46,303 nt of DNA, from NCBI GenBank assembly GCA_964370875.1, contig CAYJLM010000001.1, forward strand, positions 1 through 46,303, written 5' to 3'. A program made the translations under genes and the position numbers. Positions 561 through 46,303 of this stretch are shown here, piece by piece. Every line of letters begins with the position of its first letter. The first letter of the stretch is position 1. The notes beneath the pieces are model-generated. The model saw nothing but the letters and a program-made list of their open reading frames with translations. It was not told the DNA's origin and did not search any database. Source of the DNA: an uncultured Gammaproteobacteria bacterium. Lineage in GTDB: Bacteria; Patescibacteriota; Patescibacteriia; JACQRZ01.

Positions 561-1327
561 TGTTATTGCCCGGCTTACGTCCAAAGTTGAATTTGAGCCT
601 ATCGCTGGGTGCGTCCGGGTTTACTCCGGCTCGGCTGGCATTGTGGGCCTGGTATGACTTCTCGGATACGTCTACGCTCTTTCAGGATGAGTCGGATACG
701 CCCGTTACGGCTGAAAGTGATCCGGTTGGCGGATTTCTTGATTTGAGCGGAAACGAACGGCACGCGTCGCGGGTAACAGATGACACTCACCGGGCGCTCT
801 ATAAGCTCAATCAAATCAATGGTTGGGACGGGTTGTTATTCGATGGTAGCAATGATGCGTATGTATTGCCGGAGGATGTCTTTCCGGCCACCTGGACGGC
901 CTTTGCGGTGGGGACGGTAACCGGCGCGGGCTTGCGGCACATGATTAACTTTGACGGTGCGACTCGCATTGCCCAGGTCTTGAGCAGCACGGCCACCAAT
1001 ACCCTGCGAACGATTGGCTTCAATACTGCCGGGACGCCCTTCACGGACACCGCCCCGATTACCGCCGGAGTACCGCATGTGTTTACAAGTGTTCGCACAG
1101 CCTCTAGTGTGGAGGGCTTTGTGGACGGGGTAAGCAACGGCGGGGTAGCCAGCACCGGCACAAATCAGAGCGGCACATTGGCTGGGTATATTGGCTCGAA
1201 TGTGGGCGGCGGGGCGGAGTTTTTCAGTGGGCCGCTGGGTGAGATTATCATTTGCTCGTCTGACTTATCCGCCGCCGACCGGACGTCAGTTGAAACCTAT
1301 TTGCGGCAGAAATGGGGTATTAGCTAA
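560..1327 (+). CDS. LamG (concanavalin-A-like lectin) domain protein
   Basis: The ATG at 560 overlaps the upstream stop (TGATG); the track's start at 434 lies inside the upstream gene. Motifs: LWAWYDFSD, DLSGNERHA, LLFDGSNDAYV, FFSGPLGEIIICSSDLSAADRTSVETYL, typical of Laminin_G_3. Confidence 0.7.
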   Translation: MLLPGLRPKLNLSLSLGASGFTPARLALWAWYDFSDTSTLFQDESDTPVTAESDPVGGFLDLSGNERHASRVTDDTHRALYKLNQINGWDGLLFDGSNDAYVLPEDVFPATWTAFAVGTVTGAGLRHMINFDGATRIAQVLSSTATNTLRTIGFNTAGTPFTDTAPITAGVPHVFTSVRTASSVEGFVDGVSNGGVASTGTNQSGTLAGYIGSNVGGGAEFFSGPLGEIIICSSDLSAADRTSVETYLRQKWGIS

Positions 1328-1872
1328 TGGCAATTCGAGGCGACTCATGGAGCAGCACCGCCGAAGTCAAGGCGTTTGTGCCGCATCTCGTCAATAGCAC
1401 CGGGACATTCTCGCCGGTCAGTCTGACGGTAACGCAAGTCGAGAAATTCATCGACCGCGTCTCGGCTGTGTTGAATGCGGCGCTGTGGCATGCAGGCCTC
1501 AATCCGGCCTCGGTCAAAGTCAATTCAACCGCCTCGCTCTCGTGTGATGATTTCGTCACCACGCGGGCGGTGGCGTACTGCGAACTCACCCAGCGCGGCG
1601 AGGGGTTTAGCGCCGAGGAAGGCAGCCGCTATGGCGCGTTTATGAACCTGACCGGGCTGGAAAAGGACGCCACTAAATTTGTCGGGCTATACGCGCTCGG
1701 CTTCAAGCGGATGGGTGTCAGTGTTGCCAATCCGGTGAGTCAAGGGCTGGCCTTTACGGGTCAATCGGCAAGGGCCGATAGAGCAGACCCGGATGACACC
1801 AGCCTGGAGCAGCCGTTTATCAGCCGTCATCAGTTTGACGACATTTCGATTAGCGAGGATGAGAGCAACTAA
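1327..1872 (+). CDS. Virion-module protein of unknown function (head-tail joining position)
   Basis: 181-aa ORF with TAATG overlap to the upstream gene. It sits between the LamG gene and the tail tube gene. Contains two N-S-T motifs (LVNSTGTF, KVNSTASL). Confidence 0.65.
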   Translation: MAIRGDSWSSTAEVKAFVPHLVNSTGTFSPVSLTVTQVEKFIDRVSAVLNAALWHAGLNPASVKVNSTASLSCDDFVTTRAVAYCELTQRGEGFSAEEGSRYGAFMNLTGLEKDATKFVGLYALGFKRMGVSVANPVSQGLAFTGQSARADRADPDDTSLEQPFISRHQFDDISISEDESN

Positions 1873-9076: not shown

Positions 9077-9185
9077 CGTCTCTCTCCACACTCCCCACCA
9101 CCGTCCCGATTGCCGACACACCGAGCCATGCGCCGAGGCAACAGCCGCAGCCGAACGAGGTGATGAGGGTGTATAGGTAGGTCAT
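9066..9185 (-). CDS. Possible 39-aa small membrane protein
   Basis: MTYLYTLITSFGCGCCLGAWLGVSAIGTVVGSVERDDEN. Its ATG overlaps the stop of the dam-like gene (ATGA). It is below the ORF-track size cutoff and fills an otherwise empty gap. Confidence 0.3.
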   Translation of the reverse strand: MTYLYTLITSFGCGCCLGAWLGVSAIGTVVGSVERDDEN

Positions 9186-9862
9186 GGTTGGAATAGGCCG
9201 GGCTGATGTAAGTCGTTCATCCAAACGGCTTCGGTGGTTTTATTCTTTGAACCATGCAATGTTCCAATTGGATAAAATGGCAACCAGTCGGCTTTAGTGT
9301 TTTCGCAGACGATTACTTGCCCGTCGCGGGATTGACACCATTCAGACAAATTCGGGAAGTCCAAGAGCTTATTACTTTGTTTATAATGTTCCCCGCCAAA
9401 CTGATAAGGTGGGTCGATGAACCAAGTAGCCTCTTTATTCTCTATATTGCGATAATCTCCTAATTCAATCCGCCAATTCTTTATCTTGAAGATTTGAGAC
9501 GCTATGCGCTTTAAATCTTTTTCAACGTCAACACCGTCAAATGATGCAACCTTTTGGCGTGGGCTTTCAACGCCGCCAGTTACCAGAAACCCCATAAACA
9601 TTCTTTCAACATCAGACAACGATTCTGGAATCCGCTCACCTGTTTTTAGTTTAGGAAGCCCTAAAATATCTTTCGGCGCGGCCTGCTGTAGATAGTGCCA
9701 TACCTTGATGATCACATCGTACTTGTCTACCAGCAGAACATCATGCTCCCAATATTTAAGCGCGTATCTGGCCGTCCCCGCGAACGGCTCAATAATCTTC
9801 TTGTGCTTCGGCGCGGGATACAAGTCAATCACCTTGCTTTTACTGCCATAGTAAGACCACAT
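9182..9862 (-). CDS. dam: DNA adenine methyltransferase (D12/Dam class)
   Basis: Motifs YYGSK, EPFAGTARYA (FxGxG) and FIDPPY. The gene looks visibly AT-richer than its neighbours (by eye). Confidence 0.85.
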   Translation of the reverse strand: MWSYYGSKSKVIDLYPAPKHKKIIEPFAGTARYALKYWEHDVLLVDKYDVIIKVWHYLQQAAPKDILGLPKLKTGERIPESLSDVERMFMGFLVTGGVESPRQKVASFDGVDVEKDLKRIASQIFKIKNWRIELGDYRNIENKEATWFIDPPYQFGGEHYKQSNKLLDFPNLSEWCQSRDGQVIVCENTKADWLPFYPIGTLHGSKNKTTEAVWMNDLHQPGLFQP

Positions 9863-11146: not shown

Positions 11147-11283
11147 TTCACCACCTCCGCCGTCAGCACAATCGCCCGCATCTCCCGCCCATCTGCCACC
11201 ACCCCCGGTACGCACAGCAGCCCGGACGCGGAGAGGAGGAGCAGGCCGCAGAGAACGAGGGCGAGGATGAGACGGGGTGTCAT
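11143..11283 (-). CDS. Possible 46-aa signal-peptide/membrane miniprotein
   Basis: MTPRLILALVLCGLLLLSASGLLCVPGVVADGREMRAIVLTAEVVK, with ATGA overlap upstream and GTGA overlap downstream. Confidence 0.35.
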   Translation of the reverse strand: MTPRLILALVLCGLLLLSASGLLCVPGVVADGREMRAIVLTAEVVK

Positions 11284-11951
11284 CGCTTCCCTGCCCGGAA
11301 ATCGGAAAACTTCAACTTCCACATCAACCGATGTCCATTGCGGGTAAGTAAGAGCGGATTAGTTCGGGCCACAACCCCTTCAGCCTGCAAGCCCGCACCG
11401 CCATCTTCTTTAGCGCAAATGCTTTCGCTGATAAGCAATGCCAATTCATCCTCGCGGGTTGGAATATGCGCGATCTCGCCCAATACCGGGACGGTGGTAA
11501 CACCCAACTTAATTGCCACGTCCAGAATATCGCTTTGATTTAGCCACCACTCGCCCACCTTGACATCGAACAGGCGAAACGATACGCCCTTGCGGTAGTT
11601 GCCGCCGCCCTTCTGAATCTTCTCGCCATAGCCCTCACCGAACAAAACGATACTAGCAAGCGAGTTATCCATTTCGGGAAACGCCAATCTCATCTTATCA
11701 GCCGTGAACGTCTCTTGTAAATGCGACATCAAGAATGTTGGCATTTGAGCGTTATCGGTGCGCCCGCCAAACTGTATCTTCCAGTCTACAATTGGCGTAC
11801 AGCCCACCCGGATATTCGTGCCGTCAATCTTTTCGGTCACAAGCCAACGCTTGATATTCTCAAATTCCGGCAGACGAAACTCTTCGGGGATAACCGTAAA
11901 CGTTTCCTTGTTGCGATTGTAAACAGTTTCAATCTTTGGATATTCAATCAT
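11280..11951 (-). CDS. ATP-dependent RNA-ligase-family nucleotidyltransferase
   Basis: Motif I TEKIDGTNIRV (KxDG), FGEGYGEKIQ, AEGVVAR and WKLKFSDF, giving a ligase motif I/III/IV/V layout. Size and order resemble the Pfam RNA_ligase (PF09414) family. Confidence 0.7.
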   Translation of the reverse strand: MIEYPKIETVYNRNKETFTVIPEEFRLPEFENIKRWLVTEKIDGTNIRVGCTPIVDWKIQFGGRTDNAQMPTFLMSHLQETFTADKMRLAFPEMDNSLASIVLFGEGYGEKIQKGGGNYRKGVSFRLFDVKVGEWWLNQSDILDVAIKLGVTTVPVLGEIAHIPTREDELALLISESICAKEDGGAGLQAEGVVARTNPLLLTRNGHRLMWKLKFSDFRAGKR

Positions 11952-27134: not shown

Positions 27135-27401
27135 ATGACTAATCCACCTGAATCATCTTGGTACAATTCTGACTATCTCAATCAGCTTAACGTGTTACGC
27201 CACATGCAGCAGCGACAACTTTCCGCCCAGGGTGACCCCTTCCGCCCTGGCCCGTTCGAGTTGTCGGATGAGAGCGATGAATCGCCGCAACATAACCCAC
27301 TGCCGCAGGTGGACAGGCGTGTGAGCCGGGTAGTGGTTGCGGTCATCGTGGCAATGGCGGTGGTAGGGGCCACGATGCTGGTGTGGGCGGTGTGGGGATG
27401 A
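27135..27401 (+). CDS. C-terminally anchored small membrane protein
   Basis: ATG 27135 (MTNPPESSWYN) lies behind GGAGGCGAAAGGGA; the track's start at 27066 abuts the putative -10. C-terminal TM segment VVVAVIVAMAVVGATMLVWAVWG. Confidence 0.45.
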   Translation: MTNPPESSWYNSDYLNQLNVLRHMQQRQLSAQGDPFRPGPFELSDESDESPQHNPLPQVDRRVSRVVVAVIVAMAVVGATMLVWAVWG

Positions 27402-28618
27402 CCCAATTCCGCACCTCGAAGCGCAACAACAACAAGCACACCCAGCGCGGGATGGGACTACTCGCCAACTCCATGCGCGAGGATGGCTATGTTGCGCCGG
27501 TGACGGTTGCGGCAGACGGCGAGTCGCTGGACGGTTCGGCCAGGCTCGAGACGATTGAGGAAGTGTTTCCGAATGCCGAGCCGATAATTATTCACAGTGA
27601 CGGCACACGCCCAATCGTACACGTTAGAGATGACATCCAAAACGCAGAGCAGCCCATCGCCCGCCGGATTGCGACTCGCGCCAATCGAATCGCCCAACTC
27701 AATCTTGATTATGATGTTGACGTGCTGCTGCAAGACGCGGCGGCGGGTATTGATTTGGACGCGCTAGGGCTGCGAGATGATGAAGTAAAAGAGCTAATGG
27801 CGAAGGCGGGGATGGAGATGGGGGGGCAGGCCGACGCCGAGCCGCAGATAGACAAAGCCGCCGAACTCAATAAGAAGTGGAAAGTGAAGCGCGGCGACTT
27901 GTGGAGCATCGGTGAGCATCGGTTATTGTGCGGGGATAGCACGGTACGCGAGGATGTGGAGCGGGTGATGGGCGGGGAGAGGGCGAGCATGGTTTTTACA
28001 GACCCGCCCTATAACGTTAATTATGGCGCGAACGCGAACCCGCGATGGCGGGTTCGCGTAATAGAGAACGACTCAAAGACCCCAGAAGATTGGGCGAAGT
28101 TCTGCGAGTTGTGGATGCAGTCTATTTTCAGTGTGGCTGATGGTGGGGTTTATATCTGCATGAGCGACAAAGAGCTTCCGTCCGTCACGAGCGCATTTCT
28201 AAAAGCGGGCGGGCATTGGAGTTCCTATATTGTCTGGGTGAAGGATAGGTTCGTTTTAGGTCTAAAGGACTACCATTCTCGAAACGAGAAAATACTATAC
28301 GGCTGGGTTGAAGGCAAGTCCCATGTGTTCACGGGCGGGCGCGATAAGGACGATGTGTGGGAGATAGCGCGGCCATCGACCAGCGAAGAACACCCAACCA
28401 TGAAGCCCGTCGAATTGGTGGCGCGGGCGGTAGCCAACTCATCCGATTTAGGCGACAACGTATATGAGCCTTTTGCTGGCTCTGGTACAACCCTCGTCGC
28501 CTGCCAGAATCTAAGCCGCAAGTGCCGCGCTATCGAAATCAGCGAAAATTATTGTGCTGTTATTTTGGAGAGGATGGCAACCGCCTTTCCCGCCCTGCCA
28601 ATTGAGCTAATACCATGA
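27398..28618 (+). CDS. ParB-like N-terminal domain fused to N6/N4 DNA methyltransferase (beta class)
   Basis: The N-terminus has ..VTVAADGESLDGSARLE (ParB-like DGxxR). The methylase has FTDPPYNVNYG and HPTMKPVELVARAV..VYEPFAGSGTT (PF01555 pattern). ATGA overlap upstream. Confidence 0.85.
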   Translation: MTQFRTSKRNNNKHTQRGMGLLANSMREDGYVAPVTVAADGESLDGSARLETIEEVFPNAEPIIIHSDGTRPIVHVRDDIQNAEQPIARRIATRANRIAQLNLDYDVDVLLQDAAAGIDLDALGLRDDEVKELMAKAGMEMGGQADAEPQIDKAAELNKKWKVKRGDLWSIGEHRLLCGDSTVREDVERVMGGERASMVFTDPPYNVNYGANANPRWRVRVIENDSKTPEDWAKFCELWMQSIFSVADGGVYICMSDKELPSVTSAFLKAGGHWSSYIVWVKDRFVLGLKDYHSRNEKILYGWVEGKSHVFTGGRDKDDVWEIARPSTSEEHPTMKPVELVARAVANSSDLGDNVYEPFAGSGTTLVACQNLSRKCRAIEISENYCAVILERMATAFPALPIELIP

Positions 28619-34550: not shown

Positions 34551-35567
34551 ATGCCTAACTCCGCTGATTACATTTCACCGTTCGCATTCGGACAATTCGC
34601 GGCCACCAAAGCCGGTGACCCGTATCTGTGGATGCCCTACGGCCCAATTACCAAGAACGGTGAGACGATTCTAGTTGACCGCAACTATGCCGCCAAATTC
34701 AAGCTGCCCCACTTCAAGCCGCCAATCAAACTAGGCAGCCATGACGAACCGACCCCGGCGGGCGGGCATATCATCTCCTATGAACTGCGGGATGACGGGA
34801 TTTGGGTCACGCCCGAATTGGTAGCCAGTGGCGAGAAAGCCCTGGCAGACGGGGCTTACCGCTATCACTCACCTGAAGTCATCTGGGAGGGCGGCTACAT
34901 TCTCGACTCAACGACGGGCCAGAAGATATACGGCCCTTTGATTATGGGTGATGCGCTCCTGCATACGCCCGCACTAGGTGAAAAGACTTCTCTCTACGTT
35001 ATCGAAAGGAAAGAATCCATGACTGAGCAAAATATCACCGTCCCTGTTAGCTGGTTGGAGCGGATGTTTGGCAAGAAAGAAACCCCCGCACCCGAACCGC
35101 CTCCGCAGAAAACGGAACTTACCATTGACGGCGAGGAAATCAAGAAACTTCAAGCCGAGGCCAGCAAAGCTACCACCTTGCAGGCCGAACTCGACACCCT
35201 CAAGGCCGAAGCCAGCCGCCAGGAACAATTGACCGCCCTGACCGCCGAGATGGGCGATGTCAAGCAGTACAACGCCACGATTGCCGGGAAGCCCGCCGAA
35301 GTGGCTGCGCATCTATCTGCCATGCCAACCGCCGAACAGGATTGGGTCAAACAGCAATTCAAAGCGCTCTCGGCTCAAATCAATGAGACCGAACTGCTCA
35401 AGAAACATGGCGACCCGACCCAACAGAGCAACGACAACCCGGTCGCGCAATTCAATGCGGCGGTGCTGGAGCGGTCGGTCAAGGACAAGGTTGACTACCC
35501 GACTGCCGTCCGGCTGGTAGCGGCTGAACAGAAAGACCTATACGAAGCCTATCTGGCGGCTCGTTAA
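34551..35567 (+). CDS. Prohead protease/scaffold (Mu gpI-like N-terminus, coiled-coil C-terminus)
   Basis: The N-terminal 150 aa (FAFGQF..LVDRNYAAKFKLPHFKPPIKLGSHDE..YRYHSPEVIW) resemble Mu_I-gp32. The C-terminal half is Ala/Glu/Lys/Gln-rich coiled coil. No SD precedes the ATG. Confidence 0.65.
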   Translation: MPNSADYISPFAFGQFAATKAGDPYLWMPYGPITKNGETILVDRNYAAKFKLPHFKPPIKLGSHDEPTPAGGHIISYELRDDGIWVTPELVASGEKALADGAYRYHSPEVIWEGGYILDSTTGQKIYGPLIMGDALLHTPALGEKTSLYVIERKESMTEQNITVPVSWLERMFGKKETPAPEPPPQKTELTIDGEEIKKLQAEASKATTLQAELDTLKAEASRQEQLTALTAEMGDVKQYNATIAGKPAEVAAHLSAMPTAEQDWVKQQFKALSAQINETELLKKHGDPTQQSNDNPVAQFNAAVLERSVKDKVDYPTAVRLVAAEQKDLYEAYLAAR

Positions 35568-35619: not shown

Positions 35620-36018
35620 ATGGCTGCTGGTAATCATGGAACCGTCATGCCGCGCTACCTCCCCGGTCTGCTGGCCGGTCTGACGTTGGCGGCGAAACAA
35701 AACTACGTTGTCAAGCACGCCTCAACCGCTAACGCGGTGGTTGCGGTGACCGCTACGACCGATATTGCCATCGGGGTTGTGCTGAACGACCCGGCTTCGG
35801 GCGAAGCGGCTCTGGTGGCTGATGATGGCATTGTCCCTTGCATCGCGGGCGTCAACGACCTGGCGCGCGGGGAAAACGTCGGATATGACTCGACCGGGCG
35901 GGTGGTTGACCATACGACCGCCAACCGCTTGAGCATTGGCCGGGCACTTGAGGCCTCAACAACCGTCGGAGATATTGTAAGTATCCAACTCTATGGTGGT
36001 GGAGCGCACCTCTACTAG
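35620..36018 (+). CDS. DUF2190-type head decoration/cement protein
   Basis: 132 aa, directly upstream of the capsid gene. Contains AIGVVLNDPASGEAALVADDGIVPC..GENVGYDSTGRV. Confidence 0.65.
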   Translation: MAAGNHGTVMPRYLPGLLAGLTLAAKQNYVVKHASTANAVVAVTATTDIAIGVVLNDPASGEAALVADDGIVPCIAGVNDLARGENVGYDSTGRVVDHTTANRLSIGRALEASTTVGDIVSIQLYGGGAHLY

Positions 36019-36042: not shown

Positions 36043-36993
36043 ATGCCTACTATCCCCACCATCAACGATGTACAGGGCGTCGAAACCGTCCTGACAAATA
36101 TGCTGATTGGCTACATGCAGACTGATACCCGCTTTGTGGCTACCCGTCAATTCCCGTTCGTGCCGGTGGCCTACGACTCCGGGACATTCTTCATCGTCAC
36201 CAAGAAATACTTTTTTATGGATGACCTGCGGGCACGTGCCCCCGGCGGTGATTTTGAGTATGCGGGCTTTGGCCTCTCGACTGACACCTATTCCACCTTC
36301 CAGTGGGGCAAGGGGCTGCTCCTGCCCGACGAAGTCCGGGGTAACTCCCAAGTCCCTATGGATTTGGAGCAGATTGGCTTGCGGCAGTTGTCGCAGAAGT
36401 CCCTCATCCGCAAGGAAGTGGCCTTCGCTACCGACTTCATGGCCTCCGGCGTCTGGGGCACAACCGACAGCAACAGCACGACCGACTGGGATGATTTCGC
36501 CGCTGGTGACCCGGTCAATGACGTGATGACCGCCTCGCGCACCATCTCCAACAACACCGGGTACGATGCCAACAGTATGACGCTGGGCTATATCGTGCAT
36601 CAGGCCTTGACTCTGCATCCCGATATTCTTGACCGCTTGAAGTACACGACCGCCGCGACTCAAATGGCGGTGGAAGGCGCACTGGCGGCCATCTTCGGCA
36701 AGTCAAACTACTGGGTTGGCAAGGCGACCTACACCAACACCAACGAGGCTTCGGCCTTCTCGGCTTCGGCTATCGTGGACGATGATTGCCTGGTTTCGTA
36801 TGTTGACCCAAGCGCCGGCATCTTTGGCGCGACGGCTGGCAAGACCTTCACCTGGGCGGTGGGCGGCGGTGAGGGTGCAATCTTCCGTGACCCAGCCCGG
36901 CAGAACCACAGCGATACCTTCCAGCACAAGGAACAGTGGGATCAGAAGGTGGTTGCTTCCGACCTCGGCTACATCTTCCTGGACGTGGTTTAA
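36043..36993 (+). CDS. Major capsid protein (HK97-fold, gpE/Mu T-like family)
   Basis: 316 aa with a strong SD (AGGAG). Its position after the protease and decoration genes is typical, as is the N-terminal PTINDVQGVETVLTNMLIGYMQ. Confidence 0.8.
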   Translation: MPTIPTINDVQGVETVLTNMLIGYMQTDTRFVATRQFPFVPVAYDSGTFFIVTKKYFFMDDLRARAPGGDFEYAGFGLSTDTYSTFQWGKGLLLPDEVRGNSQVPMDLEQIGLRQLSQKSLIRKEVAFATDFMASGVWGTTDSNSTTDWDDFAAGDPVNDVMTASRTISNNTGYDANSMTLGYIVHQALTLHPDILDRLKYTTAATQMAVEGALAAIFGKSNYWVGKATYTNTNEASAFSASAIVDDDCLVSYVDPSAGIFGATAGKTFTWAVGGGEGAIFRDPARQNHSDTFQHKEQWDQKVVASDLGYIFLDVV

Positions 36994-37005: not shown

Positions 37006-37446
37006 ATGGCTAACCGACCTCAAAACTCACCGAAGGGATTGTTTGTCAAGAAAAAGATTGGCGTAGCCGATTCGAGTGGCAATGTATCCTATCTCACTTC
37101 CAACTCAACCGGGTTGGCATTGGATGGGGCATTGCAGTTGTCCGGGTCGGTCGCTCACAAGTTGACCGGCAATTCGACCGGGCTGGTATTGTCGGGCGGC
37201 GTGAAGATTAGCAATCAGGCCAATGGCGTTTTGACCGCCAACTCGACCGGCGTCAATGCCGTCGGCTCGGTGGCAGTTTCCGGGCAGGCCACATTTGGCA
37301 AGCTATCAGCCAATTCAACCGCATTGATTTTGCCGAACTCGGTGCGGGTCGGAACAAAGACGACCTACCTGAGTTCGGATTCTACGGGAATGAAACTGGG
37401 GTCTCGATACGTGAGCACCAACACAACTGGGAACTCAGTCACCTAA
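37006..37446 (+). CDS. Repeat protein with L-[TS]-x-N-S-T-[GA] motifs (candidate modification substrate / head fibre)
   Basis: 146 aa with SD AGGTGAG. Gly/Ser/Thr/Asn/Val/Leu-rich. It has six N-x-S/T sequons, five of them in conserved repeat contexts. Confidence 0.7.
   Translation: MANRPQNSPKGLFVKKKIGVADSSGNVSYLTSNSTGLALDGALQLSGSVAHKLTGNSTGLVLSGGVKISNQANGVLTANSTGVNAVGSVAVSGQATFGKLSANSTALILPNSVRVGTKTTYLSSDSTGMKLGSRYVSTNTTGNSVT
37090..37443 (+). repeat. Imperfect tandem coding repeats, period ~66-72 bp (22-24 aa), 5 copies plus a short sixth
   Basis: The repeat cores are YLTSNSTG (aa 29), KLTGNSTG (52), VLTANSTG (75), KLSANSTA (99), YLSSDSTG (121) and YVSTNTTG (135). Confidence 0.7.
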
Positions 37447-37551
37447 CTTTGTCGAAGCAGGCGGCGGGAGGTTGGCGACTCTTGCCGGTGCGCGCTCACC
37501 CAATGGAGTCGCGCAGCCCCCGCCGTCTTGCTCCGAGCGCGCGGAGCATTT

Positions 37552-38529
37552 ATGAACAACCAAACAGCACCGAAGGAATACACTGGCTCGTGTTATATTG
37601 GGTGGGTCGGGCCAGAGGGGGAAAACGGGGAATGCCGGGACAGTATCGAACATCTGATACTTGACCGGGGCGATAGTTTTCCAGTCCCCGTCCGGGCCAC
37701 AAAGGGCTACGAAGCCCGCAACATTCATTTTGAGCGGTGGCTAACCAAGACGGAGCATCCCTTTATGCTCCTGCTTGACCATGACCATGTTTTCCCGCCG
37801 GATACATTACGGCGCTTGCGTTCGCACAAGCTCCCCTATGTGTCCGGTCACTATTTAAGGCGACGGTACGAACCGATTGCGCCGGTCTGGTTTGAGCCGT
37901 TCAGCGGGTCATGGCCTTTCAAGCCATTCATGAAAGACCCGGAGCGCGGCAAGCTACATGAGTTGGGCGCGTCCGGTTGGGGTTGTATCCTCATTCACCG
38001 CGACGTGGCTCTGGCAGTACAGGCGCTATTGCATCACGAGCCATTGGTGCTTGAAGATGACATGGACATCTGGGCCTACGACCTCGACAAACTGATTGCC
38101 GCCCTGCGAATCCTGAACGGGTTACAGAATGGCGAAATCAAAGAGGATGGGGCGCGGGCCTTCCGGGTAGCCGTCAAGACTCTGAATGAGAATATCCGTC
38201 CACTGCGGGGCGTGAAAGACCCGGCGGGCAGTGATATACGATTCCCGTTCTACGCCAAACAGGCCGGGTATACGCTCTGGGGTGACCCGGACGTTAGAGT
38301 ACCCCACATGCTCAATTACCCACTCTCGCCCGATGACTACAGCGGGCAGACCGAAGAGTCTAAACTGACCCAGGCCGAAGTTGGTTTGCAGGGTTATTTC
38401 CCGGAACGGCGGCGCATGAAGGAACTCGCGGCAGTCCAGCGGGGCGAGGCCTGGGAATGTCCGCTCTGTGGCAATGTCAACCCGGTAACAGAACAAGTCT
38501 GCCTGGGGTGTGATGAGGCAAGAAAATGA
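37552..38529 (+). CDS. GT-A-fold glycosyltransferase with C-terminal RanBP2-type zinc finger
   Basis: ATG 37552 lies behind GGAG. DxD-like LLLDHDHVF, GASGWGCILIHRDV, and GSDIRFPFYAKQAGY. C-terminal WECPLCGNVNPVTEQVCLGC. Confidence 0.65.
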   Translation: MNNQTAPKEYTGSCYIGWVGPEGENGECRDSIEHLILDRGDSFPVPVRATKGYEARNIHFERWLTKTEHPFMLLLDHDHVFPPDTLRRLRSHKLPYVSGHYLRRRYEPIAPVWFEPFSGSWPFKPFMKDPERGKLHELGASGWGCILIHRDVALAVQALLHHEPLVLEDDMDIWAYDLDKLIAALRILNGLQNGEIKEDGARAFRVAVKTLNENIRPLRGVKDPAGSDIRFPFYAKQAGYTLWGDPDVRVPHMLNYPLSPDDYSGQTEESKLTQAEVGLQGYFPERRRMKELAAVQRGEAWECPLCGNVNPVTEQVCLGCDEARK

Positions 38530-39389
38530 AAACGCTCTTTATCGCCTCTGGCCCATACTCGTGGGGGTCGGCTCGAATGCGCTGTTACTGGCCCGCCAAG
38601 TACATGACTGACGCGCACGTAATCCTCAACGGCGAACCGCTCCCGACAAACTTCGATAACTATATCTTCCAGAAGCAGGCCGCCAATGAGGACGTCATGC
38701 GGAAATTAGGGGAGATGGGCAAGCGAGTCTACTGGGATTTGTGCGATCCGATGTGGTGGTGGAGTCCCGAATTTGTAGAGGCGATTGCCCCGCTTTGTCA
38801 CAGGCTTGTTTTTAGCAGTCGGGCGCTTGAGGATGATTACCTGAATTGGTGTTCGAGTGAGACTCTAATCACCATCCCCGACCGGCTGGACTTTGACCAC
38901 TTCAAGCAACGCGCGGTATTGGCTGACCGTTCCCCGATTCGCCTGATTTGGTACGGGGTGGCAGTCAACCGGATTGCACTCATGGCGGCGCTGGCTAACC
39001 TCGAACGGCTGGCGGCTAATGGCGTGAAATTCGAGCTAACCATCTTTGATGACCGCCCCGAAGTACAATGGCTGGAAACCGATTCGTTTCCCGTCTATCA
39101 TGTGCGCTGGAGCGTTGAGAAGGAAATCGACATACTGACGGCTCACGACATTGCGCTCCTGCCGCCCTATCCCGGCCCCTGGGGGAGGGTGAAAAGCCCC
39201 AACAAGAAGATAACCGCCTGGGCTTGTGGCCTGCCCGTGACGACCGGCGAGGACTATAATGAGTTGTACGATATATGCCACATGCTAGAGATGCGGGTGG
39301 CGCTGGCAAACGCCGGATGGCGTGAGGCTGAAACAAACTGGCGCGCGGAACAGAGCGCGAAGGATTGGGAGGTATTGCTAGCCGAATGA
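38526..39389 (+). CDS. Possible GT-B-fold glycosyltransferase
   Basis: 287 aa with ATGA overlap. Two-Rossmann-like layout; KSPNKKITAWACGLPV resembles a GT1-type C-terminal motif. Weak by-eye call. Confidence 0.45.
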   Translation: MKTLFIASGPYSWGSARMRCYWPAKYMTDAHVILNGEPLPTNFDNYIFQKQAANEDVMRKLGEMGKRVYWDLCDPMWWWSPEFVEAIAPLCHRLVFSSRALEDDYLNWCSSETLITIPDRLDFDHFKQRAVLADRSPIRLIWYGVAVNRIALMAALANLERLAANGVKFELTIFDDRPEVQWLETDSFPVYHVRWSVEKEIDILTAHDIALLPPYPGPWGRVKSPNKKITAWACGLPVTTGEDYNELYDICHMLEMRVALANAGWREAETNWRAEQSAKDWEVLLAE

Positions 39390-40696
39390 ACATCGTCATC
39401 GCTAACACCGTAGGCCGTCTCGATTCGGGTGAGTTGGTTGTCACCTTCCCCAGCCGATGGTCGTCTGTCGTTGCCCATAAGGTCAACGGAAACTTTGATT
39501 TTTATCCTTATGAGTTAGGCTATGTTTCGGCCATGCTAAAACGGGAACTACCGAAAGGCTGGGCAACCGTAACGATGGTAGACGGGTGTCACGAGTGCCT
39601 ATCGGCAGATGAATATATCCCGCGGCTGGCCCTGCTTCGGCCCGATGTATTGATTACCGAATGTTGCGCCCTCACCTATCCGGCTATGACGCGAGTCTTG
39701 CATGGGTTACAGGCGCTAGGCTATGCCAAAGCGGGCGCGTGGTTGGGCGGGCCATACGGGATGTACAACCCCGTTCAGGCTACGAATGACGGCTGGAGCG
39801 TAATGACAGGCGAATACGAATACCGGATAGCCGATGCGTTTCAATTGCCACACCCGCCGGGCCAGTACATTGATTTAGACTGGTTGCCATTTCCCGAAGA
39901 TGACGACATCAGGCGGATTGAGTATGAAGAGCCGTTTGGCAATCCCTATAGCGGGATGGTACAGGTTTACGCCTCGCGGGGCTGCCCGCTGGCCTGTAAG
40001 TTCTGTGTTGTGCCGATGTACTATGGTGGGCACGGTAACAGCCACAAGAGCCACCGGGTGAGGGACGTCGAATCGGTCTGTGCTGAATTGGGGTATTTGG
40101 CCGCTAAATACACAGACCGATTCAACGGGGCATACTTCCACGAAGAGACGCACAACGCGAATCCCGAATGGCTGGCGGCGCTGTGTGAAGAGATAATCGC
40201 GCAAGGGTTGAATCGCTATCACTATGACGCGATGTGCGGCTATTGGACGTTCACCGAGGACTTGATTGGTCTTATGGCGCGGGCCGGATACTGCAATATT
40301 AGAGTCGGCATCGAATCGCTCTCGCAGGGGGTTGGTAAGCGGATCGGGAAGGTTGTGTTTGAGGATAAGCTCATCAAGGTCTTGGAGTGGTGCAAGAAAT
40401 ACGGTATACGCACTTACGGCACATTGCAGGTCGGGGCGCAAGGGGCAACCGAGGCGGGCGATTTGGATACACTCGAATCAGTCTTGGACTTGCGGCGGCG
40501 CGGGCTACTTGATATTTGGCAGCACAGTATCAGCACCCCCCAGCCGGGTACGCCGTTCTTTGATGAGGTCAAGCAGGCGGGCTATCTCATCACCGAGGAT
40601 ATTCGACATTTCAACGGCGTACAGGCGGTTGTCTCATGGCCGGACTACCCCGCCGAACGAATCAACGCCGTGCGGAGGCGGTATCTAAACGCATGA
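39386..40696 (+). CDS. Radical SAM enzyme with N-terminal B12-binding-type domain (class B)
   Basis: CPLACKFC (CxxxCxxC, 39983-40006) follows a ~190-aa N-terminal Rossmann-like domain. IRVGIESLSQ. ATGA overlap. Confidence 0.8.
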   Translation: MNIVIANTVGRLDSGELVVTFPSRWSSVVAHKVNGNFDFYPYELGYVSAMLKRELPKGWATVTMVDGCHECLSADEYIPRLALLRPDVLITECCALTYPAMTRVLHGLQALGYAKAGAWLGGPYGMYNPVQATNDGWSVMTGEYEYRIADAFQLPHPPGQYIDLDWLPFPEDDDIRRIEYEEPFGNPYSGMVQVYASRGCPLACKFCVVPMYYGGHGNSHKSHRVRDVESVCAELGYLAAKYTDRFNGAYFHEETHNANPEWLAALCEEIIAQGLNRYHYDAMCGYWTFTEDLIGLMARAGYCNIRVGIESLSQGVGKRIGKVVFEDKLIKVLEWCKKYGIRTYGTLQVGAQGATEAGDLDTLESVLDLRRRGLLDIWQHSISTPQPGTPFFDEVKQAGYLITEDIRHFNGVQAVVSWPDYPAERINAVRRRYLNA

Positions 40697-41643
40697 AGCG
40701 CGTCTGCCTCATCCATCGGCCCGGTGCGAATAGCGGCGGCGATTGGGTAGCCCTGCAAGCCTACGCTGAAGCCCTCCAGATTCAAGGCTGGCAATACGCC
40801 CTCCGCCCCGCTGACAGGATAGGCGACCTGTCCGGTTTTGATTACGCCCATCTGTGGGCGGCTTGCTCCCCTGATTGGGGGTTGAATGCTGCGATTGAGG
40901 TCAAGCGGCAGGGCAAGCCTCTCATCATTACACCGTTTTGGTGGTCACGGGACGAACGGCAGGCGTTCTATGGCCGGGCCGGGCAGGACTTGACAGCCGG
41001 TTATACGCCGGGCGTGGCTGAAACCCTGAAGCGGGCGGATGTGTTATTCACCGTTACCGAGAGCGAGGCGCGGCAATGTTGGGAGCTTGCGCCGAATGTA
41101 AAAGCCTGGATTGTTCCGATGGGGACTGAAGCGAGATTAGGACTGGTGGCCCAGCCTGTTGAGAATTTTGTATTGTCGATTGGCCGGATTGAGCCACACA
41201 AGAATCAATTGACCCTGGCAAAGGTCTGCAAGATGCTGGGCTATAAGCTGATACTATTCGGGAAAGTCGTCCACCGTCAATATGCCGATATGATCCTGTC
41301 GCTCGGTCATCCGATTTATCAGGCGGCAGACCTATCGGAAACGATGAAATGGAAACTCCTGTCACATTGCCGCGTCCATGCCCTACCATCATTCTTTGAG
41401 AATCCCGGCCTTGTGCATGGCGAGGCGTTGGCGCTCGGCATTCCGGCGGTGATGGGTGGTCATGGGTGCGAAACAGAATTCTATAAAGAAAACGGTATCT
41501 ACTGTGACCCGACTCAAATCACCGATGTCGCACGGGCGCTTAAGGTGGGTTGGGAGCGCCAGCGGCAAGCCCCCGCCAAACTGCCGACGTGGATAGATGC
41601 GGCCAATCGGGCGATTGAATGGATGGAGGCGCACGAATGCTAA
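40693..41643 (+). CDS. Glycosyltransferase family 1/4 (GT-B)
   Basis: SIGRIEPHKNQ and PSFFENPGLVHGEALALGIPAV (E-x7-E motif). ATGA overlap. Confidence 0.85.
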   Translation: MKRVCLIHRPGANSGGDWVALQAYAEALQIQGWQYALRPADRIGDLSGFDYAHLWAACSPDWGLNAAIEVKRQGKPLIITPFWWSRDERQAFYGRAGQDLTAGYTPGVAETLKRADVLFTVTESEARQCWELAPNVKAWIVPMGTEARLGLVAQPVENFVLSIGRIEPHKNQLTLAKVCKMLGYKLILFGKVVHRQYADMILSLGHPIYQAADLSETMKWKLLSHCRVHALPSFFENPGLVHGEALALGIPAVMGGHGCETEFYKENGIYCDPTQITDVARALKVGWERQRQAPAKLPTWIDAANRAIEWMEAHEC

Positions 41644-42251
41644 CTGAACGAAGCCGCGAGATCCCGTTTCTGCTCAATCACGCCATTGGCGCGCGCGATA
41701 TGCTGGACATCGGTTCGGCAGGCTCGAAGTATCTGGCGTCCCTGTCGCAAGTCGTTCACAATCTCACCTGTATCGATACCCGCGATTATGAGGTGCCGTA
41801 TGGGGTGACGGGCTTGATTGGCGATGCGACTCATTTACCCGAAGATTGGACAGGGCGCTTTGATTGTGTCTCCTGTATCAGTGTGCTTGACCATGTTGGA
41901 CTGGACGCTTACGGCAATAACGCCGACCCGGAAGCATTGGGGCGGGTAGTGTCTGAAATGGCGCGGGTAACAAAGCGGGGCGGCAAGCTGATTGTGACCG
42001 CCCCGGTAGGCAGGCCGCAACTCACCATCCATCCCAACGGCGGGCAGCGGGTGTTTGACCCCGACGAACTTTATGATTTATTTGTTGATAAGGACTGGCG
42101 ACTCAAGTATTACGAAGGATGGGCCTTAGTCAACTATGATGACGGAATAGAAGAATATAAACAATGTAATATAGTTGCGTGGCTATCCAATTCGGAATAT
42201 GGCGGAAATCGCGCCAATGCTTGTCTGTGTGCGGAGTTGATTCGGCTATGA
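41637..42251 (+). CDS. Class I SAM-dependent methyltransferase
   Basis: Motif I MLDIGSAGS, then FDCVSCISVLDHVG and GGKLIVTAP. ATG 41637 overlaps the upstream gene by 7 nt. Confidence 0.75.
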   Translation: MLTERSREIPFLLNHAIGARDMLDIGSAGSKYLASLSQVVHNLTCIDTRDYEVPYGVTGLIGDATHLPEDWTGRFDCVSCISVLDHVGLDAYGNNADPEALGRVVSEMARVTKRGGKLIVTAPVGRPQLTIHPNGGQRVFDPDELYDLFVDKDWRLKYYEGWALVNYDDGIEEYKQCNIVAWLSNSEYGGNRANACLCAELIRL

Positions 42252-42844
42252 AAATCGTGGCGCTAATTATCGGAATCGACGGCTGGAACGAATACACCGC
42301 GCCATTGGTTGCGGGCATTCAAGACCATGAACCGGATTGCCAGATTGTCGTCATTGACAACCACAGCCAGCGGCCTTACCCGGCTATGCCATACGTGCAT
42401 TACACTGACCGACTATGCTATGCGAAGGCAATCAACGCGGCGGCATCATTCGCGCCTGATGCGGACTGGTATATCATCCTCTCAAATGACGTGGCCTGTA
42501 CGGGTGAGTTCTCCGAGATGGTTAGCCGCCTTGACCCGGAGTGCATCTATGGCGGGGAAATGTACACCTTCTATGACGCTATTCCGTTTGTCATGGGGTG
42601 GTGTGTTATCACCTCGCGGGCCATGTTTGAGCGGGTGGGCGGCTGGGATGAAAACTATGTTGTCAGCAGTTGGGAGGACGTGGATTACTCCGAGGCGGTT
42701 CGCAAGGCGGGCGGGCAGTTGGATGTAATCGGCGGCCTGCCGTTCAAGCACCTAGACCAACGCCAGCGGTTTGGTCTGCCAGAGTTTGCGGGGACGCACG
42801 AACGGAATAAGGATTACTTTCTAAAGAAGTGGAAGTATCAATGA
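42248..42844 (+). CDS. Glycosyltransferase family 2 (GT-A)
   Basis: KIVALIIG.., QIVVIDNHS, ILSNDV, GWCVITSRAMFERVGGWDE, and SWEDVDYS. ATGA overlap. Confidence 0.8.
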   Translation: MKIVALIIGIDGWNEYTAPLVAGIQDHEPDCQIVVIDNHSQRPYPAMPYVHYTDRLCYAKAINAAASFAPDADWYIILSNDVACTGEFSEMVSRLDPECIYGGEMYTFYDAIPFVMGWCVITSRAMFERVGGWDENYVVSSWEDVDYSEAVRKAGGQLDVIGGLPFKHLDQRQRFGLPEFAGTHERNKDYFLKKWKYQ

Positions 42845-43893
42845 ATTTTATTGACCCACGCTCGAAACTGCTCCATCACCCGCACCGCCTATCAATGCTG
42901 AAGGCCGGGCTAGTCCCGCCGCCAATCAATGTCGAGATTGATTTGACGAATCGATGTTCACTCGGCTGCGAGTCGTGTCACTTTGCCTACACTCACACGC
43001 GCGGGCCATTGGCGGGTAAACGCGGCAAACCCGACAACTGGCAATCGGGCGGCGATGTGATGGAGACGAAATTAGCTCGCAAGATACTGACCGACTTGGC
43101 TTCAGCGGGAGTGCTGTCGGTGACGTGGACGGGCGGCGGTGAACCGACTCTGCATCCTGATTTTGACCTGATTACCTCTGCCAATCCACTGGAGCAGGGT
43201 GTCTATACGCACGGCGGGCATATCAGCGAAGAGCGGGCGGCCATGATGAAGCAATGTTTTACGTGGGTGTACGTGTCGCTGGACTGCCCCGACCGCGAGA
43301 GTTACCGGGCTTACAAGGGCGTGGACGGTTTCGAGCGGGCTATCAATGGCGTGACGAATCTAGTGGGGGCTGATGGCAAAGCCACAATTGGATTAGGTTT
43401 TTTGCTAGGCCGCGAAAACTGGCGTAAAATACCGGAGATGATTGCACTCGGTAATCAATTGGGTGTAGACTATGTTCAATTCCGGCCAATGATTCAGTAC
43501 ACGCAGGCCGAACCGGATAAGCCAGCCGAGGATACGGGCTGGCTCTCGGATTGCATCGCGGCGCTGGAATGGTCGTTAGCGCCAAACGTGATTTGTGACA
43601 TTGACCGCTTCCGAATGTACCGGGACTGGCAGGGACACGGCTATGAGACCTGTTACTATAGCGGCCTCTCAACCGTGATTACCCCGAATGGGAGTGTGTG
43701 GACGTGTGTCAACAAGCGGGAACATGCGGGCGATTATATGGGTAGCTTACAGGACGAATCATTTAGCAACATCTGGGGGCGGCGCAAACTGGCCCACGTC
43801 AATGGTGATTGCCGGGTGCTATGCCGGGGACATCTTGCCAATCTGACGGCAGGCGAAGTGATGCGCGAGGTAGAGCATGTCAACTTTATCTAG
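42841..43893 (+). CDS. Radical SAM enzyme (second), with Cys-containing C-terminal region
   Basis: DLTNRCSLGCESCHF (CxxxCxxC, 42955-42978) and WTGGGEPTLH. C-terminal Cys residues (CVNK..GDCRVLCRGH). ATGA overlap. Confidence 0.85.
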   Translation: MNFIDPRSKLLHHPHRLSMLKAGLVPPPINVEIDLTNRCSLGCESCHFAYTHTRGPLAGKRGKPDNWQSGGDVMETKLARKILTDLASAGVLSVTWTGGGEPTLHPDFDLITSANPLEQGVYTHGGHISEERAAMMKQCFTWVYVSLDCPDRESYRAYKGVDGFERAINGVTNLVGADGKATIGLGFLLGRENWRKIPEMIALGNQLGVDYVQFRPMIQYTQAEPDKPAEDTGWLSDCIAALEWSLAPNVICDIDRFRMYRDWQGHGYETCYYSGLSTVITPNGSVWTCVNKREHAGDYMGSLQDESFSNIWGRRKLAHVNGDCRVLCRGHLANLTAGEVMREVEHVNFI

Positions 43894-44885: not shown

Positions 44886-45212
44886 ATGGCACAACCGCGC
44901 GTATTACCCGGCCTGCTCTCGCCTGCCGGATTTCAATCCTCAAGCCTCGCAAATTCAACGGCGATAGCGGTCAACTCAACCGTTAGAGCGGCCAAGCCGT
45001 CCCTGCTGATTGTTAGTGTCGAGACGAATAACGTCCGTTATCGGCGCGACGGCACAGCCCCGACACTCTCAACTGGAATTTTGCTGACGGTTGCAAATTC
45101 GCCCTACGTCATCCCCTACGACCGCACCAGCAACCTGAAATTCCAGCGGCAGACCGGCACGGCCAAAGTCCAACTTGAAGGGCTAAAGGGATACGGGAAT
45201 AACCCGTTCTAA
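44886..45212 (+). CDS. Hypothetical virion-module protein
   Basis: 108 aa with SD GGGGAG. Contains LANSTAIAVNSTV and NNVRYRRDGTAPT. Confidence 0.55.
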   Translation: MAQPRVLPGLLSPAGFQSSSLANSTAIAVNSTVRAAKPSLLIVSVETNNVRYRRDGTAPTLSTGILLTVANSPYVIPYDRTSNLKFQRQTGTAKVQLEGLKGYGNNPF

Positions 45213-46062: not shown

Positions 46063-46303
46063 AACGATTATCTATTCTGCTGGTTGTGCTGGCCTTGTTG
46101 CCGCTTCAAACTCAAGCGGCCAATTCCTTTGTGAAGGGCATTGCCCTTGCCGACTCGTCCCACCTCGAGGATTTAGACACGATTGGAGCAACGTCTTATT
46201 ACAACTGGACGCTGAATTGTCGCGATGACCCGCGCTGTATTCCAATGGCGAGAGCGTGGCAACTACCCGACTCCTGCCCGTCCGTTCTGCTAGTTGGCAA
46301 TGA
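46059..46303 (+). CDS. Secreted glycoside hydrolase, N-terminal part (continues at base 56 after the junction)
   Basis: Signal peptide MKRLSILLVVLALLPLQTQAA, then KGIALAD..YYNW..CIPMA..LLVGNE. It runs off the window end in frame with 3..560. Full length is 249 aa. Confidence 0.8.
   Translation, partial: MKRLSILLVVLALLPLQTQAANSFVKGIALADSSHLEDLDTIGATSYYNWTLNCRDDPRCIPMARAWQLPDSCPSVLLVGN
46249..46303. repeat. Second copy of the 55-bp terminal repeat
   Basis: Identical to bases 1-55. Confidence 0.95.

Follow-up and report, generated by a model that had tools for sequence, protein, structure and literature searches.

The window analysed here is a 46,303-nucleotide stretch of DNA (contig CAYJLM010000001.1), and its subject is a small protein, P0001, which is built from repeats with an Asn-Ser-Thr (NST) core and is encoded directly after the gene of the major capsid protein (MCP). 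Positions 1-55 and 46249-46303 share an exact 55-nt overlap, which shows the phage assembly to be circular and complete, with 46,248 bp of unique sequence; the genes at both ends are contiguous and a Glyco_hydro_cc-like gene of the tail region runs across the junction. Twelve nucleotides separate the MCP gene from the repeat gene, which has a Shine-Dalgarno-like AGGTGA 6 nt upstream, and 105 nt past its stop codon lies the ATG of a glycosyltransferase (GT) with a GT-A fold (Table 1). An earlier reading of the sequence, referred to below as the original prediction, had placed the gene right after a capsid gene and GT genes about 100 nt downstream, as is indeed found.

Residues 1-20 of the repeat protein form a conserved basic peptide, a putative capsid anchor, and are followed by five repeats of ~23 residues and a terminal half-repeat. 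Each repeat carries one (N/D)-(S/T)-T-(G/A) core, a tetrapeptide that will be called the tag. The six cores are N33-S-T, N56-S-T, N79-S-T, N103-S-T, D125-S-T and N139-T-T, with offsets of 23, 23, 24, 22 and 14 residues. The repeats and offsets are those originally predicted, and the six predicted N-x-S/T sequons coincide exactly with N26, N33, N56, N79, N103 and N139. The composition is S23 G19 T16 L15 V15 N13 A12, with zero Glu, Cys or Trp, and the four NST tripeptides compare with 0.23 expected from 100,000 residue shuffles of the protein (P = 2e-5). No tandem-repeat DNA was found by TRF. Repetition at the DNA level is limited to a 17-nt core, CCAAYTCRACCGG, whose copies are 71-82% identical and differ at synonymous codon positions, so that the conservation of NST is at the level of the amino acids. 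This pattern is that of old repeats kept by selection on the residues, not of recent DNA duplication.

A word-indexed search gave 102 homologue clusters of the repeat protein, every one of them unannotated and metagenomic. When 1.84 billion representatives were searched exhaustively with a profile, 172 clusters were obtained at E ≤ 1e-3, nearly all of 59-215 residues, with no credible cellular relatives; as judged from these searches the family is phage-only. No meaningful match was obtained for the repeat protein in Pfam, PHROGs, NCBIfam or PDB sequences, a FlgF match at E 0.009 being spurious. Members have the N-terminus MA(H)PQ(N/S)SPRG(L/F) in common and bear 2-10 units of G-(K/Y)-L-(T/S)-A-N-S-T-(G/A)-(V/L)-x-L at a spacing of 22-24 residues, with a mean of 3.8 NST per 112 residues over the 102 clusters. 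When the repeats are anchored into a profile, the first position is Asn in 90%, the middle position Ser in 91% and Thr in 8%, and Gly or Ala follows the Thr in 91%, while in a free alignment of the homologues T81 and T127 are invariant columns. By these alignments no part of the repeat is better conserved than its NST core, and the retention of the cores across the 102 clusters answers the check on homologues that the original prediction had proposed. At one locus (L050:4523-5316) two tandem paralogous repeat-protein genes, of 126 and 132 residues, lie between the MCP and GT-A genes.

The tag is not confined to the repeat protein. In the cement (decoration) protein encoded upstream of the MCP, a fixed column reads (N/D/S/T)-(S/T)-T-(G/S) in 50 of 51 distinct GT-bearing phages (Y-D90-S-T-G-R in the window). 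In 43% of the phages a D, S, T or L stands in place of the Asn with the (S/T)-T retained, and in several phages that have no repeat gene the column reads (L/V/I)-T-A-N-S-T-G, the same as the repeat consensus. Two further proteins, p108 and p181, placed among the head-completion and neck genes by gene order, are also tagged. The basic p108 (isoelectric point, pI, 10.4) keeps two adjacent sites in 27 of 29 homologues, with Asn at ~93% of sites, and p181 has A-N-S-T-A-K-L in ~25 of 30, the Asn being invariant and the S-T changed to A-V in 5 of 30. Neither has a Pfam or PHROG match or a significant match in the PDB, profile searches included, and a match of p108 to 'SHP of VP1' (E = 0.43) is not significant. 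Across the plus-strand genes of 22 GT-bearing loci, and with the repeat protein excluded, 77 N[ST]T[GAS] sites were counted where 12.1 ± 3.4 were expected, a number reached in 0 of 200 shuffles; the enzymes and non-structural genes of the window have 0. The MCP was considered as the main acceptor and rejected, there being no conserved NST column in 55 MCPs.

Relatives that lack the enzymes provide the comparison. Five loci were fetched through their MCPs (34-38% identity); they have cement genes, and no GT-A or repeat gene is found within 2.7-6 kb downstream. Four such GT-less related loci contain 2 N[ST]T[GAS] sites against 2.07 expected, and in L127, L129, L131 and L133 the turn of the cement protein is S-(A/S)-D-(G/S). 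Since the turn exists in this form, the S/T-T dyad is not structurally required, and, as read from the alignments, the pair of hydroxyls tracks the enzymes.

In seven loci retrieved independently, via seven different members of the repeat family, the order of genes is the same: Mu-like protease/scaffold, cement protein (PF09956), MCP (~315 residues), repeat protein, GT-A and a second enzyme. Among 82 distinct MCP loci, wherever the repeat gene and sufficient downstream sequence are present a GT-A always lies within ~1.3 kb of the MCP. Between loci whose repeat proteins are ~45% identical, the GT-A partner (~295 residues) reaches 51-54% identity, and its family has at least 607 clusters. The AlphaFold2 (AF2) model, with a mean predicted local distance difference test (pLDDT) score of 94.9, has a Rossmann-like GT-A fold. 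Foldseek matched it with a probability of 1.00 and a template modelling (TM) score of ~0.4-0.5 to many GT-A structures, amongst them STIV A197, COLGALT1, LH3, Mimivirus R699, ppGalNAc-Ts and many GT-A proteins of uncultured phages; COLGALT1, LH3 and the ppGalNAc-Ts are protein-modifying enzymes. D76 and D78 are invariant in 44 aligned sequences, of which 16 match PF00535 and 12 PF13641. The window's enzyme ends in a RanBP-type zinc ribbon (CPLCGNVNPVTEQVCLGC, window 38440-38529, residues ~300-321), for which a Pfam match is found in 1 of the 44 members. The GT-A is a partner universal to this capsid type and the candidate for the enzyme that recognises the sequon.

The second enzyme is of two types, which were never found together: over 44 distinct loci it is p287 in 19 and a fusion of a GT1 with Methyltransf_24 in 22. 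p287 is a divergent GT-B-like protein, with weak GT-B matches in 7 of 21 members, and neither it nor the GT-A gave a significant match in profile searches of the PDB. By gene content, a second GT of the GT-B type always accompanies the GT-A. None of the enzymes of the cluster has a transmembrane (TM) segment, so that all would be soluble, and in all the loci retrieved the GTs are part of the late head operon, with the MCP gene on one side and neck genes on the other.

The C-terminal module of the repeat protein also has two alternative forms, ...YISxN(S/T)TGNTTT or ...NTTGTTWKY... (NTTGTTWKYLNVTS), and these vary with the second enzyme. The YISxNSTGNTTT module goes with the GT1-methyltransferase fusion in 21 of 24 cases and the NTTGTTWKYLNVTS module with p287 in 17 of 19 (17/2 against 3/21, Fisher 4e-7); the exceptions, the window among them, have p287 and a separate GT1. 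The co-variation is suggestive of an enzyme-substrate relationship.

Two adjacent RNA hairpins lie between the last of the abundant head genes, here the repeat gene, and that of the GT-A, and the 3' arm of the second includes a GGAG 7 nt before the GT-A ATG. Of 60 distinct loci, 52 have a comparably stable hairpin at this junction (L005-L115; median z -4.3), and where the repeat gene is missing it follows the MCP gene. Neither the hairpin nor any other part of the window matched an Rfam family, and the hairpin has no T-run; it may act as an attenuator, a translational brake or a stabiliser of the mRNA 3' end. As it comes after the repeat gene, the repeat gene is part of the capsid expression unit and the enzymes lie beyond a likely attenuator, a separation that fits high expression of substrate and low expression of enzyme.

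Table 1. Features of the window referred to in the text, in order of position.
Feature	Position	Strand	Remarks
p181, virion-module protein	1327..1872	+	A-N66-S-T-A-K-L site, nt 1522-1530
Mu-like prohead protease/scaffold	34551..35567	+	
Cement/decoration protein (PF09956)	35620..36018	+	one motif copy, D90-S-T-G, nt 35887-35898
Major head protein (MCP), HK97-type	36043..36993	+	phrog_1005, E 1.5e-56; acidic, pI 4.5
NST-repeat protein (P0001)	37006..37446	+	146 aa, ATG start
Repeat region	37090..37443	+	cores at N33, N56, N79, N103, D125, N139
Two adjacent RNA hairpins	37459..37547	+	-61 kcal/mol, z -4.9; between repeat gene and GT-A gene
GT-A fold glycosyltransferase	37552..38529	+	325 aa, invariant D76-x-D78, C-terminal RanBP-type zinc ribbon
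p287, divergent GT-B-like glycosyltransferase	38526..39389	+	one of two second-enzyme types
Class-B-like (B12-type) radical SAM enzyme	39365..40696	+	CPLACKFC
GT1/GT4-type (GT-B) glycosyltransferase, accessory	40636..41643	+	
Class I SAM methyltransferase (Methyltransf_11), accessory	41619..42251	+	
Small protein weakly similar to glycosyltransferases	42179..42844	+	198 aa as called in sister contigs
Radical SAM enzyme with SPASM domain, accessory	42829..43893	+	CSLGCESC
p108, basic virion-module protein	44886..45212	+	N23-S-T-A and N30-S-T, nt 44952-44981

The architecture of the repeat protein would suit something displayed on a capsid. Position in the head module and modularity, both usual in head decoration and fibre proteins, are present, and as read from the genes the charge is complementary to that of the capsid (pI 10.3 for the repeat protein, 4.5 for the MCP and 5.3 for the cement protein). 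A larger homologue, P0286 (573 residues), consists of the anchor peptide, three NST repeats and a distal domain of 470 residues rich in Gly, Ala and Thr, and this predicted anchor-shaft-distal layout is typical of displayed fibres. In L030 (L030:7748-8476) a protein of 242 residues occupies the same slot and begins with the same N-terminal peptide (MANHPQNSWRGF...), followed by an unrelated body free of NST. This body, which gave no significant match in a profile search of the PDB, suggests that display domains can be exchanged on a shared anchor. The N-terminal peptide is not a leader that the enzyme requires for recognition, since the tag occurs without it in the cement protein, p108 and p181. 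The original prediction had likened the repeats to a β-helix or fibre; the AF2 monomer model has low confidence (pLDDT 62.8), with only short hairpins formed by L-T-x-N and G-L-V-L strands and with the S-T placed at the hairpin tips. Foldseek gave no fold match for it with E < 4, and the non-significant matches were not used.

On balance the repeat protein is probably a basic fibre or decoration protein, anchored on the capsid, that serves as a multi-site acceptor of glycans. Its N-terminal peptide would dock onto the acidic capsid, and the shaft would consist of a variable number of β-hairpin repeats of ~23 residues, each showing a tag at its tip. The tag would be the acceptor motif of a cytoplasmic protein-glycosylation system encoded by the phage, with the soluble GT-A directly downstream and one GT-B (p287 or the GT1-methyltransferase fusion) as its core. 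The first sugar would be attached by the GT-A, though the GT-B may do so instead, upon recognition of the tag where it is exposed on virion proteins that are folding or already folded, and the remaining enzymes would extend and tailor the glycan. As the cement protein, p108 and p181 bear the same tag on single turns, presumably exposed ones, the repeat protein would be the carrier with many sites, raising the sugar load per capsid. The strong conserved RNA hairpin would part the structural genes, the repeat gene included, from those of the enzymes. The glycan coat might serve in shielding, stability or adhesion, which is speculation based on the analogy to mycobacteriophages (PMC11256854, PMC12363180). 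A wider proposal, to which we give slightly less than an even chance, is that general protein glycosylation directed by a sequon takes place in the bacterial cytoplasm across this widespread group of uncultured tailed phages: the GT-A reads the tag on the exposed β-turns of any virion protein, a dedicated mucin-like carrier gives a dense glycan coat and, in some members, the present phage included, radical S-adenosylmethionine (SAM) and methyl-transfer chemistry makes unusual sugars.

Glycosylation of the NST cores had been part of the original prediction, and of that claim the conserved sites and their link to the GTs stand: comparative genomics supports the cores as conserved functional sites tied to the downstream enzymes. 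The classical N-x-S/T sequon, however, fails to account for the pattern. Because the Thr is the most invariant residue, the middle position is only S or T, the Asn is dispensable and no GT41 enzyme was detected, linkage through oxygen to the Ser or Thr is modestly favoured over the classical N-sequon.

Several observations weigh against assigning the repeat protein as a glycan acceptor. The fold of the repeat protein was not recovered, and N-S-T-G could be a tight turn of purely structural significance. About 12 loci keep the GT-A and GT-B right after the MCP without a repeat gene, so that the enzymes are independent of the repeat protein; the sites on the cement protein, p108 and p181 would explain these loci, yet the specific link is weakened. 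p108 and p181 may, by gene order, be neck proteins with limited exposure. Four conserved sites, each counted again in one related genome after another, dominate the enrichment to 77 sites, the GT-less outgroup represents one phylogenetic split (4-5 related loci) in which GTs elsewhere in the genomes are possible, and the co-variation of module and enzyme is confounded by ancestry, neighbouring genes being co-inherited. Finally, the whole lineage is uncultured, with no homologue of the repeat, GT-A or cement proteins among the deposited phage genomes searched.

The first of these points leads to the alternative that the motif is purely structural, N-S-T-G forming the preferred tight turn, or an Asn/Ser/Thr ladder, of a stack of β-hairpins or a solenoid while the GTs act elsewhere, on host envelope glycans, a precursor or the phage DNA. 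The 22-24-residue period and the alternating β-type hydrophobic residues would suit the coils of a solenoid, although the AF2 monomer gave isolated hairpins only, and the S-T at the predicted hairpin tips, the loci with enzymes and no repeat gene, and p181, where it is the Asn that is invariant and the S-T that can be lost, are all as such a role would have it. A structural turn does not, on the other hand, account for a single unstacked tetrapeptide conserved in three unrelated proteins within the GT-bearing clade only, nor for the S-x-D-G used at the cement turn where the GTs are absent. The GTs are soluble and lie inside the late head operon, and so envelope GTs of the seroconversion type were rejected; DNA glycosylation is unsupported, no base-hydroxymethylase or TET-type gene being present among the 13 largest non-structural open reading frames (ORFs) tested. 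We therefore regard a purely structural motif as unlikely.

Much the same low likelihood attaches to classical Asn-linked glycosylation by a cytoplasmic N-glycosyltransferase (NGT), as in HMW1C/NGT or chlorovirus Vp54. Every N-S-T or N-T-T core is formally an N-x-S/T sequon, Asn comes first in nine-tenths of the repeat cores, most p108 sites and all p181 sites, and chloroviruses do possess a virus-encoded cytoplasmic N-glycosylation of the capsid (PMC5408694). The sequon, however, leaves its middle position free, and here that position is S or T in ~99%. Of the seven sites in the window itself, two have Asn replaced (D125 in the fifth repeat and D90 in the cement protein), in line with the many cement proteins that keep (S/T)-T behind another residue. 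When all the proteins of the cluster and both partner families were scanned with Pfam, the result was GT2, GT1 and GT4-type matches only and no GT41/NGT-type enzyme, the enzymes detected being GT-A and GT1/GT4-like.

That the repeat protein is not a virion protein at all but a factor in head assembly (internal, scaffolding or chaperone-like), glycosylated or not, seems quite improbable. Small genes between those of the MCP and the connector can encode such factors, and a basic protein would also be compatible with binding of DNA or an internal position. The range from 2 to 10 repeats, the fusion to a distal domain in P0286 and the swapped body in L030 are, however, features of a displayed fibre and not of a scaffold, a dedicated protease/scaffold gene is already there, and the tag, being shared with the cement protein of an external decoration family, points outward.

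Downstream of p287 the window has further enzymes. The extra GT1, the small GT-like protein, the methyltransferase and two radical SAM enzymes would in this phage probably tailor the glycan further. The accessory genes of the window are present in only 3-8 of 76 loci (the B12-type radical SAM gene in 8 and the SPASM gene in 7), compared with more than 60 of 76 for the repeat gene. Sets of radical SAM, methyltransferase and extra GT genes within the late structural operon were seen in L013-L015, L023, L063-L066 and L069; the radical SAM genes of L066 and L069 occur without a repeat gene. The matches of the radical SAM enzymes in NCBIfam are all far below the family cutoffs, the best for the B12-like enzyme being HpnJ, which rearranges sugars. 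For these genes, a part in tailoring the glycan is the simpler guess.

The original prediction had also noted a resemblance to proteusin-type cores modified by radical SAM enzymes, which would make the protein the precursor of a ribosomally synthesised and post-translationally modified peptide (RiPP), the N-terminus being the leader and the repeats the core modified by the two radical SAM enzymes and the methyltransferase. This was not borne out and is very improbable indeed: the N-terminus is conserved, the three enzymes lie within 6 kb and the weak NCBIfam matches include the RiPP enzymes ApyD, rSAM_ocin_1, WgkB and StsB, but there is no match to an NHLP, Nif11 or other leader family, the radical SAM genes are as rare and as independent of the repeat gene as described above, the N-terminal peptide also heads the NST-free body of L030 and the gene belongs to the capsid expression unit.

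Elsewhere in the window the products of the non-structural ORFs tested include DNA methyltransferases, RecT, an RNA ligase and proteins for the initiation of replication and for loading. The two DNA methyltransferases (D12-class and N6_N4) are at 9182-9862 (-) and 27383-28618 (+), the latter just upstream of the terminase and portal genes, as is also the case in L010, and the RNA ligase is at 11280-11951. In 50,697 deposited phage genomes nothing was found for the locus as a whole, nor any homologue of its repeat, GT-A or cement proteins; only the MCP was matched, at ~30% identity, in Roseobacter RDJL-like, Arthrobacter and other phages. In reference genomes, six contigs of metagenome-assembled genomes (MAGs) were matched, with a mixed taxonomy that is probably an artefact of binning. 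One of them, L136 (JBHIWP010000002.1, 85.7 kb, from a Promineifilaceae MAG of the Chloroflexota), has the GT-A locus within a long contig and might be a prophage, hence a hint of the host; the remaining matches (Planctomycetaceae, Hydrogenedentes, Gammaproteobacteria) are phage-sized or short contigs that are taxonomically discordant.

What is new here is a short, conserved and portable tag, the putative acceptor, common to four families of virion proteins, together with a carrier that holds many tags in a variable number of repeats; as far as the literature surveyed shows, no earlier description of such a tag with a dedicated multi-tag carrier was found. If the proposal is true, virion glycosylation in phages would for the first time have a defined acceptor sequon, and tag and enzyme would make a compact portable pair for cytoplasmic glyco-engineering in bacteria. 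It also offers an annotation for hundreds of hypothetical proteins adjoining capsid genes in viromes, and raises the questions of what the GTs in phage structural operons act on, whether a sequon exists and whether the linkage is to nitrogen or oxygen.

Known systems resemble the one proposed in different respects. In the heptosylation of AIDA-I and TibA, and in the N-glucosylation of HMW1 by NGT at N-x-S/T sites, soluble enzymes modify many sites on repeat-rich adhesins before export. A soluble enzyme acting before assembly at repeated sites of a fibre or solenoid protein built from repeats would be common to both. The enzymes that define the adhesin systems (BAHT, GT41) are not present here, where a GT-A and GT1-like enzymes are found instead, and the substrates are unrelated. 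T4 Hoc, T5 pb10 and the phi29 head fibre are phage head decoration or fibre proteins that combine an anchor with a displayed domain (PMC7602432). Like them, the repeat protein is a small modular product of a head-module gene with a conserved, putatively capsid-binding end and a display of variable length; unlike them, it displays an array of sequons and not an Ig-like or coiled-coil domain, and there is no similarity in sequence or fold.

Chlorovirus PBCV-1 glycosylates its capsid protein with virus-encoded cytoplasmic GT-A enzymes, independently of the endoplasmic reticulum (ER) (PMC5408694), and a PBCV-1 protein ranks 27th among the structural neighbours of the GT-A. The predicted system would have in common with it a virus-encoded, ER-independent glycosylation of capsid components at sites outside the logic of the classical sequon. 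The chlorovirus is, however, a giant virus of a eukaryotic host with Asn-linked glycans on its MCP, at sites that are not N-x-S/T, while the N-S-T-G tags here sit on accessory proteins.

The functionally closest known system is the virion glycosylation of mycobacteriophages, the chlorovirus being a more distant analogue. Freeman et al. (2023) are said, in papers that cite them, to have described it. In Che8, Corndog and Myrna (the Che8 gp110 / Corndog gp38 type of system), GTs encoded by the phage put sugars on proteins of the capsid and the tail, and, as far as the accounts in PMC12363180 and PMC11256854 go, virion glycosylation by phage enzymes has been shown experimentally in a few mycobacteriophages only, where it alters recognition by antibodies. 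In both systems a tailed phage encodes its own GTs and methyltransferases accompany them. The mycobacteriophage glycan coat is made in the host cytoplasm, whereas here glycosylation is a prediction from the genes. The acceptor would differ also, being a short portable tetrapeptide on a multi-copy carrier and accessory proteins rather than the MCP, and in this uncultured environmental lineage the genes of the GTs have a constant place right behind those of the head. No sequence relationship to the GTs of Che8, Corndog or Myrna is detectable: a tblastn search of the GT-A against 50,697 phage genomes (INPHARED, E ≤ 1e-5) gave no match, the other GTs not having been tested individually. The evidence points to an independent, sequence-unrelated virion glycosylation in a large environmental clade of phages.

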